A stretch of DNA of 64,000 nt, from contig CBDBCF010000002.1 in NCBI GenBank assembly GCA_965202985.1, positions 448,001 to 512,000 of the forward strand, given 5' to 3'. Position 1 is the stretch's first letter; every line of letters starts with the position of its first letter. This document shows, in pieces, positions 43,901 through 46,900 of the stretch. The position numbers were made by a program. Origin of the DNA: Longimicrobiales bacterium (GTDB lineage: Bacteria > Gemmatimonadota > Gemmatimonadetes > Longimicrobiales > Gaopeijiaceae).

Positions 43901-46900
43901 CCACGCGAGCCAGCTCGGCCTCCAGCGCCTCCAGGTCGAAGCGCACGACCGCCACCTCCACGGCCAGCCGTCGCGCCCGCAGCTCCTGGTAGCGCTGGGC
44001 CTTTCCCTTCTGACGGGCCAGCGACCGGACCTTGGTGCGGACCTCGGCGATCACGTCCTCCACCCGTTGCAGGTCCACCTCCGAGGTCTCCAGCCTGCGA
44101 AGCGCGGCTCGGCGCCGGTCCTTGTACTTGCCGATCCCGGCGGCCTCCTCGAACAGCGACCGTCGCTCGTCGGTGCGCTCGGAGAGGATGGCGTCGATCA
44201 TGCGGATCTCGATCACCGAGTAGGCGTTCGCCCCCAGGCCCGTGTCCCTGCACAGGTCCACGATGTCGCGCAACCGGCAGGCCGTGCGGTTCAGCCGGTA
44301 GTCGCTGCCGCCGTCGCGGTAGACGGTACGGCTGATCTCCACCTCTTCGAACGGCGTGGGCAAGACGCCGTCCTCGTTCGACACGACCATCGACACCGAA
44401 CCGCGGTTCACGGGCTTGCGGGCGACCGTGCCCTGGAAGATCGCCTCTTCCATCTTGGCGCCGCGGATCGCCGTCGGGCGCTGCTCGCCCAGGACCCAGC
44501 GGATCGCGTCGCCGACGTTGGACTTGCCGCAGCCGTTGGGGCCCACCACCGCCGTGATGCCGTCGTGGAACTCGATTCGCGTGGGGTCGGGGAATGACTT
44601 GAAGCCGTGCAGCCGCAGGGAGCGGAGCTTCATGAGGTCACGCTTCCTCCAGCACCATCGACTGGGCGTCTCCCCACAGCTCCTCGAGCCGGTAGAAGTC
44701 CCGGACGGCGGGGTGGAAGACGTGGACCACGTAGTCGATGTAGTCCAGCAGCACCCAGCGGGCGTGGTCCAGTCCCTCCACGTGGCTGGGCCGACTCCCG
44801 GCGGCCTTGGCCGAATCCAGGACGTGATCGGCGATGGCGCGGACCTGGACGTCCGAACGGCCCGTGGCGACGACGAAGAAGTCGGTGGCGGGCGACAGGT
44901 TCCGCAGGTCGAGCACGGTTACGGCGGAAGCCTTGCGGTCCAAGGCGCAGCGGGCGGCCTGCCGCACGTCGGGCGGCATGTCGAAGGGCTCCCGCGTCAA
45001 GCCGGCTCGGCCTCCACGACCACCTTGACCTCGACCTCCACGTCGGGTCCCAGCCGGACCGGCACCCGGTACTCGCCGACGGCCTTGATCGGCTCGTCCA
45101 GCACCACGTCCCGACGGTCCACCTCGAAGCCGACGCCGGAGGCCGACGCCTGCTCGGCGATGTCGCGGGTGGTGACGGAGCCGAACAGCTTGCCCTCGTC
45201 GCCGGCCTTGGCGGCGAAGGCCAGCGTCTTGCCTTCCAGCAGGGACGCGCGGCGGTTGGCCTCCAGGTAGTCCCGGCGGGCCTGCTCGGTTCGGCGACGG
45301 CGCTCTTCCTCGATCCGCTTGACGTTGGCCTCGGTCGCCCGGTAGGCGAGGCCCTTGGGGATCAGGTAGTTGCGGGCGTAGCCGGGCTTCACGTTCACCA
45401 CTTGGCCCGGCGACCCCAGGTGCTCGACGGCCTCGCGCAGAATCAGCTTCATGCCACGTGGTCCTTGGTGTAGGGAAGGAGCGCCAGGAACCGGGCCCGC
45501 TTCACGGCCGCGCCCAATCGCCTCTGGAACGCCGCCGTCACCCTCGTGGTGCGCTTGGGCAGGATCTTCCCCTGCTCGGTCAAGAACCGCGACAGCGTGG
45601 CCACGTCCTTGTAGTTGAGGAGCACCACGGGCGGTCCCTCGTGGCGCCGGCGCCGGCCGCGGGTGCCCGAGAACTCGGGCGGGCCGGAACGGGGCGGCGG
45701 CGCGGGGCCGGCGGACTCGTCCGCCGATTCGTCTGGGGCCGCTTCGCCTTCCGTGGCGGCGGCTTCTCCCTCGATCGCGGCTGCTTCCGGCGTCTCGGGT
45801 TCGCCGGGCGCGGACGCCGCGTCGCTTTCGTCGGCTGCATGGGCGGCCCCGTCGTCGGTTTCCAGCGGATCGGCTTCGAGCTGGTCGGCGTCGTCCTCCG
45901 AGGCTTCGTCCGCCAGGTGGGCGGCGTGCGGTCGGCTCGCCAGCAGCGACGCGCCCGACGTGGACTGTCCCTTGTTCAGGACGATGAGGTGCCGCAGCAC
46001 TTCCTCGTCCAGCTTCACCAGCCGCTCGAACTCGGGCAGCGCCGTGGGGTCGGCGGAGAACTGGGCGACCGCGTAGTAGGCGGTTTGCGCCTTGGCGATG
46101 GGATACGCCAGCTGGCGGACGCCCCAGTGGTCCAGCGCGGTGACTTCGCCGTCCAGGACCGAGTGGAAGGCGTCCAGCTTGGCGTCCACGGCCTCCCGCT
46201 CCAGGGAGGCGTCCATGACGTAGACGATCTCGTAGGCTTTCATGTTCGTTCTCGGGAACTCCCCTGGACCGCAGGTCGAAAAGACGGGCCCCGCCTTCCC
46301 TTGGGCGGAGCGGGCTCGGTGCGAGCACGAAAGATAGCACGCCTTGATTCTGGCGCCGAATCCCGGCCTATTGTACCGTTCGCGTTGGCCAAAACGCCGA
46401 AACAGCTTCGGCCAACGTCAGACCATTCACGGCAACAGAGGGTCGCCCTCCCAACATGGACTTCACATTCGCCGGCGCTCGGGCCAGCGACACCTTCGGC
46501 TGGTTTGCGCGCGGGCTGCGGAACGTCATGGAGTCGGAAGGCCATCGCTACACCGACGAGGCCAACGACGCCAAGCTCGTGGTGAACTTCTTCCCGAGGG
46601 ACGAACCGCGCCCGGTGCGCCGCAACGCGCAGGCGGTGTTCGTTTGCGCCGTCACCGAGTTCCCGGCGCCGTTCACGGACCCGATCCCCCAGGGCTACCC
46701 GACGCTGATCCGAGCGCTGGCCAACTTGGCCGTGGGGCTGGTTCCCGGCGACCACGAAGACCCGGACGTGCACTTCGTGACGCCCGAGCAGGGACACTAC
46801 ACCGTCTCGGGCAACTCGAACCGAAGCCGCTACTTCGAGCAGGTGTACCAGCGCATTCATCCCTTGGCGTCGTCCACGCTGGTGATCGAGAACTTCTTCG

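Follow-up and report, generated by a model that had tools for sequence, protein, structure and literature searches.

Bacterial ribosomal proteins are treated as the products of one gene and one chain each. In the window, a 64,000-nucleotide stretch of a genome from the family Gaopeijiaceae, rpsF and rpsR instead share a reading frame. The locus raises the question of whether S6 and S18 are made and used as a single polypeptide in this family, and of how such a gene arose.

Domain Organization of the Fused Gene

The fused rpsF-rpsR ORF (45449..46243, minus strand, as are all features below) is a single stop-free frame of 264 aa with the order bS6-linker-bS18. The bS6 domain (aa 4-88; 45980..46234) matches Pfam PF01250 with 81.4 bits (cut-off 27), and TIGR00166 is matched with 70.3 bits, above its cut-off; in the predicted structure, the S6 fold aligns with 8cwo_F (Z 15.8, rmsd 1.5, 93 residues aligned). 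It is followed by an S6 C-terminal segment conserved in the alignment (aa 89-103; 45935..45979), in which DSSP assigns a strand or bridge to aa 100-101 of the model, by an acidic, low-complexity linker (aa 104-187; 45683..45934) and by a PPEFSG-xGRRRR-xEGPP segment (aa 188-205; 45629..45682), the conservation of which was counted in 203 proteins. The bS18 core (aa 206-264; 45452..45628), delimited by alignment to a 75-aa S18 chain, matches PF01084 at aa 209-256 with 70.2 bits (cut-off 21); TIGR00165 scores 72.5 bits, above its cut-off. For the protein predicted alone (pTM 0.60, which speaks only indirectly to contact between the domains), pLDDT is 92-96 in S6, 77-92 in the S18 core, 43-56 in the linker and below 50 at aa 188-198. 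The stop of the fused ORF overlaps the ATG of rplI (bL9; 44997..45452) as ATGA, and rsfS (44638..45000), identified by domain matches, is the next gene in the same run. A promoter scan gave no sites.

In a genome-wide profile search, the S6 and S18 domains have one match each, in the same 322-aa open frame; the fused ORF is the sole source of either domain in the genome. Three contigs from two short-read studies span the locus without a frameshift. Relative to the window, one of them has 20 substitutions and, within the linker, an in-frame insertion of 3 nt; the remaining two are almost identical to the window and may be its source DNA. The initial annotation, which described rpsF and rpsR as one 264-aa ORF, was thus correct: the frame is stop-free, both domains exceed their cut-offs and the ORF is intact in the contigs of two studies. 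All 120 homologues listed, from four sources, carry both Pfam domains.

The S6-S18 fusion is real and is a variant of a known pair. Like canonical bS6:bS18 (S6 chains of 1G1X, 7K00 and 8CWO, for example), it passes the Pfam and NCBIfam cut-offs, has the S6 fold (Z 14-16), keeps the RNA-contact Lys and Arg, and belongs to an operon that runs on into rplI; unlike the canonical pair, it is one polypeptide with neither a free S6 C-terminus nor a free S18 N-terminus. The window departs from the two-gene, two-chain arrangement in having one frame, no stop and no internal start led by a Shine-Dalgarno (SD) sequence. No PDB chain covering both domains was found among the best 60 of 111 matched sequences. 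In E. coli, S18 residues K60 and R63 and the CCR sequence form S6:S18-RNA contacts by which CC of 16S rRNA and of the mRNA leader is read (PMC4647458, PMC3854524). The aligned residues here, K248 and R251, are invariant (39/39), and FQR is present in all 203 fused proteins. Judged by alignment, the residues that define the fold and those that contact RNA are retained in both domains.

The fused gene probably encodes a natural single-chain bS6:bS18 heterodimer with the usual ribosomal and autoregulatory jobs, a reading to which we give a probability of about 0.8. The chain would fold as an intramolecular S6:S18 pair and, in the usual order, bind to the central domain of 16S rRNA once uS15 is in place. 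Like the free S6 tail before it, the acidic linker would form a loop projecting from the 30S platform, and the Arg-rich segment would bind RNA near the platform, replacing the basic N-terminus and zinc knuckle of S18. Surplus protein, as one molecule, would repress its own translation via the retained CCR/SD leader. Fusion would be tolerated because the end of S6 is near the core of S18 and the two proteins are needed in 1:1 stoichiometry in any case, and the same two features would explain its recurrence in other lineages.

The Linker, the PPEFSG-Arg Segment and Loss of Zinc Ligands

The linker extends the acidic tail that S6 had ancestrally. It is acidic (median net charge -18), variable in length (24-129 aa, median 53; 187 of the 203 fused proteins measured), always in frame, and predicted to be disordered. 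Of 203 distinct fused proteins, 196 carry PPx[FY]xG and 202 the Arg-rich half of the segment, and Cys is found in the S18 part of a single one; these counts bear out the proposed anatomy of S6, variable acidic linker, PPEFSG-GRRRR and Cys-free S18. The PPEFSG-Arg segment stands where ancestral S18 had its N-terminus and CxxC, and CxxH reads T236xxF239 in the window, so that the CxxC and CxxH of zinc-binding (C+) bS18 are both absent. The C+ bS18 of sister families and of the split genera G146 and G147 (see below) is the same orthologue at the same locus, related by direct descent in the trees, and differs in that the four ligands have here been lost in place, CxxC being replaced and CxxH becoming TxxF. 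The comparison with C+/C- ribosomal protein pairs follows PMC9976891. The Cys-free S18 is not a zinc-starvation paralogue, because the genome has no other S18.

Two ideas on the Cys loss were rejected. Loss is not tied to fusion and does not require it, because ligands have also disappeared from unfused S18 genes of other Gemmatimonadota families (4 of 30 loci are Cys-free in the S18 stretch examined, and 10 more lack two ligands). A family-wide zinc-sparing switch is ruled out by fused G231, which retains Cys-type L31 and S14. As to a loss of modifying enzymes, rimI is above cut-off in 5/5 genomes, and the RimK-family search does not separate RimK from its paralogues.

The strong conservation of PPEF is unexplained by a plain tether. 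The P, F/Y and G of the segment are nearly invariant (198 proteins) yet predicted to be disordered in the protein alone, suggesting folding on a partner. It is possible, if tentative, that the segment and the acidic loop have been selected for a novel role on the 30S platform, such as tuning SD pairing or mRNA entry. The persistently strong acidity of the linker fits this idea, as does the anti-SD pocket that bS6, bS18 and bS21 build at this site in Bacteroidia, according to PMC9976891. However, linker length varies five-fold, the gene's own leader retains GGGA/GGAG and bS21 is present in 64/64 genomes; because bS21 is kept, replacement of bS21 by the Arg-rich segment is ruled out.

It is rather unlikely that the whole chain is made as a polyprotein and then cut at or near PPEF-SG, leaving two chains in the ribosome. 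Processed ribosomal precursors have precedents in the Prp cleavage of the bL27 extension and in ubiquitin-ribosomal protein fusions, and the motif is conserved just where an S18 N-terminus would start, behind a disordered linker. Yet a Prp-family match was found in 0/5 genomes searched (the control was positive in 3/14), although a different protease might act; the residue after F may be S, T, A, Q or H, and genus g23 lacks PP. Moreover, in fusions of other lineages the two domains are only about 10-13 residues apart (P0171, P0178, P0221, P0265), and no such motif is present. These short linkers count for the tethered heterodimer.

Distribution and Origin of the Fusion

An S18 match is present in 300 of 314 family genomes, one of which has a second match, a fragment of the same type, and the S18-containing open frame is at least 200 aa long in 283 of the 300. 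Frame length by itself is unsafe as proof of fusion, because nine loci of sister families have frames of 149-246 aa and yet are all split. On translation, 92 of 104 family genomes, spanning 43 genera, proved fused. The short frames number 17, of which 15 were translated: three are fused, five are cut by contig ends and four carry single frameshifts, all nine of these interrupted frames bearing the fused-type motif. Of the remaining three, one lies on a foreign-looking contig with the order rpsF-ssb-rpsR, and two, G146 (g28) and G147 (g29), are truly split with a Cys-type S18. With 2 of 81 genera split and retaining all four zinc ligands, the fusion does not mark the whole family, as the initial annotation had supposed. 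Its description of the sister families as having two genes and a Cys-type S18 stands (50/50 loci split, 48/50 with CxxC and CxxH). In a phylum sample of 301 genomes, no fusion outside the family was found among 30 loci translated, though long-linker fusions may occur in the rest of the sample; among 80 loci listed from a genome-contig scan, 5 are fused, all from Gemmatimonadota and of the window-family type. Where homologue records are named, they read 'Gemmatimonadota bacterium', and NCBI has one species in Gaopeijia.

In G146 and G147, the rpsF end is followed by 3 nt and then by the rpsR start in the same frame, with one stop between; were that stop lost, the two genes would become one. In-frame spacing is not special to the two genera, being found in 15 of 52 loci of the order, about the chance level. 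The GyrA tree places G146 inside the family (96/94) as sister to 17/17 fused genomes (99/98), and the RpoB tree places G147 inside the family (100/99) as sister to the fused genomes (84/93); for G147, one nested placement (p 0.046) and a placement with f3 (p 0.024) were both rejected. Because these trees put both genera at the family base, they show a single origin of the fusion inside the family, on the stem after the G146/G147 lineage had split off. One stop loss on that stem would have joined rpsF and rpsR, and on the same branch S18 would have lost its initiator Met and its four zinc ligands, with the S18 N-terminus converted into the PPEFSG-Arg-rich segment. PP is probably older than the fusion, because both basal S18s begin M-[PA]-P-P-K.

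The opposite polarity, with a fused ancestor of the whole family and with G146 and G147 explained by reversion, operon transfer or mis-binning of contigs, is very improbable. Such doubt might arise from the genomes themselves, as G146 is 76% complete with its locus on a 3.8-kb contig and G147 has 6% contamination, and from a tree of S6, L9 and RsfS (S18 columns omitted), which does not settle how the split pair and genus g79 branch relative to each other and recovers the fused genomes as a single clade in only 30% of bootstrap replicates. Against this, unlinked markers put each genome sister to the fused clade, and the two split loci form their own clade (100/99) within the family in the locus tree. 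Their gene order is ychF-rpsF-rpsR-DUF2232-rplI-rsfS, and the G146 leader folds with the third helix of the family (see below). In addition, reversion would require regaining four ligands and a start.

Translation and the mRNA Leader

Even less credible is a merely nominal fusion, in which S18 is also made from an internal start within the one frame. An ATG precedes EG in 37/87 loci, 61/88 have some in-frame NTG in the stretch that separates S6 from the S18 core, and Glu codons can yield an SD-like GAGGAG, as in split relatives; but the pre-EG position is a non-start codon (CAC/CAT, GTC, ATC and others) in 42/87, and an in-frame NTG has an SD-like site in only 10/88 fused loci, at scattered positions. 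The window linker has no Met or Val codon, and the only candidates in the window, GTG206/207, have no SD. By these counts, a conserved internal start is absent. S6 cannot be made alone, because there is no stop in the frame.

The single-chain heterodimer would also be the effector of a leader upstream of the ORF. In the rpsF leader (S6S18CBM), the SD lies inside a stem with an unpaired CCR just upstream (PMC3854524). The window has an S6:S18-type leader at 46259..46314, in which CCC pairs with the SD GGG and which contains a hairpin and a third helix; in the consensus fold the unpaired CCR is at 46267-46265 and GGAG at 46262-46259. The leader motifs (SD in a stem, unpaired CCR just upstream) are found in 88/89 fused genomes, CCR standing 1-2 nt before GGGA/GGAG. 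The SD-pairing stem, inner hairpin and CCR are common to this leader and S6S18CBM (PMC3854524, PMC4647458), whereas the single irregular hairpin with a bulged loop is not shared: the third helix creates a three-way junction in 84/89 fused genomes and 0/49 sister loci. A further difference is that the putative effector is here one chain. Compensatory changes occur in 6/14 pairs, with 0/500 shuffles as high, the consensus having been scored on the same alignment that yielded it; only one of the four pairs of the third helix has such a change. The minimum-energy fold of the window leader differs from the consensus (z 0.58). Rfam has no match at the window leader, and six loci gave only sub-threshold, unrelated matches.

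S6-S18 Fusions in Other Lineages

The fusion is not special to this family, contrary to what had been proposed, as the same fusion arose in several other bacterial groups. Fifty further cluster representatives hold both domains. They include WP_236865559.1 of Ca. Hydrogenosomobacter endosymbioticus, fused on an 827-kb genome record and named 'Multifunctional fusion protein' in UniRef, and clusters from Pseudomonadota and Ca. Absconditibacteriota. These proteins have the same domain order, but are mostly shorter (155-266 aa) and are without the PPEFSG segment. A single clade uniting all the fusions is rejected by the AU test (p 4e-6), and on phylogenetic grounds the other-lineage fusions are separate origins. 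Three other Gemmatimonadota-like fusions group with other families (99/93); their independence from the family was not accepted, as one clade with it is not rejected (p 0.07). A metagenome scan for relatives of P0127 gave none.

Some database S6-S18 fusions are frameshift artefacts: about 20 of 26 two-domain matches listed, judged by eye, still have a native S18 start following garbled sequence. Although such bogus fusions occur, a sequencing or assembly artefact is refuted for the present family by the short-read contigs, the 92 fused genomes in 43 genera, the S18 N-terminus remodelled without Met and the lack of a second genomic copy. No description of an S6-S18 fusion was found in the openly searchable literature, subscription journals being outside its scope, and the words 'fusion' and 'fused' are absent from the main text of PMC11651109, PMC3353972, PMC7782861 and PMC3854524.

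Implications for the Family

Surprise is limited, because obligate side-by-side partners are expected fusion candidates and the fusion recurs elsewhere. Databases name the fused protein only S6 or only S18, thereby hiding that it is one marker gene. The fusion is a clean marker of the crown clade of the family (about 79 fused genera, judged by open-frame length), not of the family. It also provides a natural single-chain reagent for studies of 30S assembly and leader binding.

A bolder account can be offered only speculatively. Fusion of S6 and S18 may have originated repeatedly and independently, 5-10 or more times, seemingly without having been described in the literature, with the family showing the transition in place, from basal in-frame split genes to loss of the stop, the zinc knuckle and the S18 start. 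The new Pro/Phe/Arg-rich arm might then fold on the 30S platform and alter the handling of the SD helix, and the three-way leader might serve single-chain self-repression.

The basal split genera supply before and after sequences for the change from an operon pair to one gene with the zinc knuckle replaced. If the tethered heterodimer is true, a large family builds its 30S subunit with a tethered S6-S18, which would mean that the pair can be hard-wired.

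A single gene for S6 and S18

The S6-S18 fusion is real. As the initial annotation proposed, rpsF and rpsR form one stop-free ORF of 264 aa (45449..46243, minus strand), in which the S6 domain occupies aa 4-88 (Pfam, 81.4 bits) and the S18 domain aa 209-256 (70.2 bits); the cut-offs of TIGR00166 and TIGR00165 are both exceeded. In the window's genome (92% complete, two contigs), each domain family has a single match, inside the fused frame. The frame is unbroken across the locus in contigs of three of the four sequencing runs compared, from two studies: one spanning contig has 20 substitutions relative to the window and 3 nt inserted in frame in the linker, the other two hardly differ from it and may have been where the window DNA came from, and the fourth run covers the S18 end only. 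Both Pfam domains are present in 120/120 homologues, the best 120 of 1529.

Downstream lie rplI, with an ATGA overlap, and rsfS, directly followed by an SMC-like gene (41136-44633, minus strand); judged by eye, the ORFs beyond presumably resemble a metallo-beta-lactamase-fold protein, a DAHP synthase and a YraN-type protein. Divergent from the fusion is a 360-aa ORF (46456-47538, plus strand) with a class II aldolase/adducin domain at aa 204-289 only and no family match in its N-terminal half. A gap sized for a DUF2232 gene is found in 17 of 22 panel loci; a gene of that size (~950 nt) between rpsR and rplI is absent in the window (45449-45452), in the genomes sampled from genera g1, g3 and g20, three in all, and in both genomes sampled from family f2 (loci L185, L187 and L188 among these).

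Distribution within the family

The family comprises 314 genomes in 81 genera, with an S18 match in 300 and an S18 open frame of at least 200 aa in 283 of these. Among the 17 genomes with shorter frames, two (G232, G167) have theirs at contig starts and 15 were translated: three are fused, five have the fused-type motif and are truncated at the end of a contig, and four have the motif and one frameshift, at four different places, which are read as assembly indels. Two are truly split (G146, genus g28; G147, genus g29). The remaining one is a foreign-looking rpsF-ssb-rpsR contig (G301:C9:1-4045, locus L152; genome 60% complete). Its S18 is of the Cys type but resembles no Gemmatimonadota form and clusters with a Clostridia row in the 77-row tree described below; the contig is probably mis-binned. 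Locus L072 (genome G401) appears alphaproteobacterial, a comparable case.

Altogether, 92 of the 104 family genomes translated are fused, spanning 43 genera; beyond these, frame length is a proxy only, as nine sister loci are all split despite frames of 149-246 aa. The family-wide fusion first described therefore extends to nearly the whole family and breaks down at G146 and G147. The contrast drawn with sister families stands: in two of them the genes are split in 50/50 loci (30 + 20, one foreign-looking), with CxxC and CxxH in 48/50; no conclusion rests on G376, one of the 50, which is flagged as unpublished.

Origin of the fusion

In G146 and G147, rpsF ends in an acidic tail and TAG, and the rpsR ATG follows after 3 nt in the same frame, with one stop between them. 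The gene order in G146 is ychF-rpsF-rpsR-DUF2232-rplI-rsfS. Such in-frame junctions are common, occurring in 15/52 loci of the order and in 22/30 top phylum loci, the latter from a search that favours them. A GyrA tree (24 rows, 817 columns) nests G146 within the family (96/94), where its sister group is the full set of 17 fused genomes (99/98). In an RpoB tree (24 rows, 1004 columns) G147 likewise belongs to the family (100/99), with the full set of 16 fused genomes as its sister group (84/93); placing G147 with family f3 (p 0.024) or within one fused subgroup (p 0.046) was rejected. A tree of local genes unites the two genomes (100/99) and makes them the sister group of 15 fused genomes (100/97); with the S18 columns removed, it does not order this pair and genus g79. 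These positions inside the family, sister to the fused genomes, indicate that the fusion arose once, within it. Among 29 genomes of the order, most have two long GyrA-family genes, each scoring close to the cut-off for gyrA or above it.

The S18 of both basal genomes begins M-[PA]-P-P-K-x-C-R-L-C and has CxxH. Of 82 split loci checked, these two alone have PP at this end of S18, so the PP of PPEF is probably older than the fusion.

Anatomy of the fused protein and zinc-ligand loss

The 203 distinct fused proteins, of which 88 come from loci and 115 from a homologue search, are 174-384 aa long, with a median of 232. The variable acidic linker and PPEFSG-GRRRR segment (the arm, aa 188-205) first noted in the window protein recur across this set: the linker ranges from 24 to 129 aa, with a median of 53 and a median net charge of -18 (187 measurable), PPx[FY]xG is present in 196/203, the Arg-rich part of the arm in 202/203 and FQR in 203/203. 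The absence of zinc cysteines is likewise borne out, with Cys in the S18 part of one protein of 203; relative to basal S18, the Arg-rich run occupies the place of the first CxxC, and the CxxH position reads T236xxF239 in the window protein. K248 and R251, invariant in the 39 fused sequences aligned, align with residues 60 and 63 of an S18 chain of 75 aa, where Lys/Arg read conserved cytosines in rRNA and leader according to PMC4647458.

AlphaFold2 models S6 at pLDDT 92-96 and the S18 core at 77-92, against 43-56 in the linker and under 50 at aa 188-198 (whole-chain pTM 0.60). Solved S6 chains superpose on the modelled S6 domain with Z up to 15.8 (rmsd 1.5, 93 residues). In-frame ATG/GTG/TTG codons with a Shine-Dalgarno (SD)-like site occur in 10/88 fused loci at scattered positions; in a codon scan of the window locus, the only internal candidates are GTG206/207, with no SD. 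A 174-aa fusion (L038, G119:C69) lacks the last S6 strand, runs straight into acidic repeat and is probably an assembly collapse.

Cysteine loss also occurs without fusion: among 30 top phylum loci, four have no Cys in the stretch examined and 10 more have lost two ligands. Since both L31 and S14 are still of the Cys type in the fused genome G231, the loss is specific to S18.

In families f4 and f5 (L205-L234), split S18 displays stepwise loss, from CxxC to CPxT or no Cys and, in the second ligand pair, from CxxH to DxxH or SxxH. In the window's genome, Cys-free L31, L33 and L28 are clustered side by side (G000:C1:497230-498090; L239, L248) and a Cys-free S14 of 101 aa lies near G000:C1 387400-387710 (L240); motif scans of this 92%-complete genome found no Cys-type L31, L33, L28 or S14, and its L36 and S4 remain Cys-type. 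Cys-type L31 and S14 are present in G147, G231, G327 and G328.

The mRNA leader

The start codon is preceded by a conserved leader in which CCC pairs with the SD GGG; it also comprises a hairpin and a third helix, and its CCR lies 1-2 nt ahead of GGGA. The 5' and CCR-SD motifs occur in 88/89 fused genomes with enough upstream DNA and in 47/49 sister loci, and the third helix in 84/89 and 0/49, respectively. In 37 leaders chosen for short hairpins, pairing holds in 99.2% of cells and 6/14 pairs have compensatory changes (0/500 shuffles as high), the structure being derived from the same alignment on which it was scored and its outer and third helices being mostly invariant.

The predicted structure places the SD within a stem and CCR directly before it, which fits the definition of S6S18CBM (PMC3854524). 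In E. coli the leader represses translation only with both S6 and S18 present (PMC4647458). Rfam gave no match to the leader in the window and further loci searched, and the window leader's own minimum-energy fold departs from the consensus (z 0.58). The G146 leader folds with the third helix, so this helix is older than the fusion. The window's leader hairpin (46311-46278, minus strand), with a T-run behind it, has a terminator-like score; the T-run is missing in most aligned relatives.

Fusions in other lineages

A profile of the family alignment, searched against 1.84 billion representatives, gave at least 150 matches; 57 of the 150 listed have both domains, seven being of this family's type. 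Nine of the 50 others were set aside because they retain the native S18 start or have the appearance of deletions. The retained 41 are all above both Pfam cut-offs, with CxxC/CxxH in none, a count partly circular given the native-start filter. Among the 41 is WP_236865559.1 of Ca. Hydrogenosomobacter endosymbioticus, on an 826,669-base record. Five of 20 non-family fusions looked up fall in clusters of 3-5 members, and 15 are singletons; the ESM Atlas holds two-domain clusters from Gemmatimonadota (162, 55 and 65 members) and, at scores of 0.85-0.89, from Pseudomonadota (88, 90) and Ca. Absconditibacteriota (55). Of 26 two-domain database matches, about 20 keep the native S18 start and look like frameshift artefacts, so database counts of fusions are too high; such proteins are numerous among P0287-P0312, P0406, P0424 and P0465.

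In a 77-row, 146-column tree built from 29 of these 41 fusions, 11 family fusions and 37 split pairs, 10 state changes are required, at least 5-6 of them forced by well-supported branches; a single clade of all 40 fused rows was rejected (p 3.6e-6). In this tree three fusions of Gemmatimonadota-like type are placed with other families, one having a fused relative at 72% identity; a single clade of the three with the family's fusion was not rejected (p 0.07). As a mark of Gaopeijiaceae, the fusion is thus carried by nearly all members and is shared in kind with other lineages.

A working model

The S6:S18 pair forms before binding the S15-rRNA complex (PMC4647458). Other natural fusions have about 10-13 residues between the two domains, which implies that the S6 end adjoins the S18 core and that a tether costs little. 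In our model the single chain would fold as the usual S6:S18 pair and bind the 16S central domain, with the acidic linker looping outward from the platform; the Arg-rich arm may take over the site of the former basic N-terminus and zinc knuckle, and surplus fused protein would repress its own mRNA. We assign the whole, from usual pair to self-repression, a probability of about 0.8; its gene-level steps are observed, and we infer those at the protein level.

The arm's conservation, together with the bS6/bS18/bS21 pocket of Bacteroidia described in PMC9976891, suggests a new platform function for the arm, a tentative and rather unlikely reading that is compatible with the tether model. Cleavage of the chain near PPEF is quite improbable, Prp protease being found in 0/5 genomes searched, and the arm as a replacement for bS21 is rejected because bS21 is present in 64/64 genomes.

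Automatic annotation already records the two-domain architecture, and no description of an S6-S18 fusion was found in the literature searched, which lay outside supplements and subscription journals. The family's S6-S18 fusion is one of many of its kind, and the transition to it is preserved in two basal genera.
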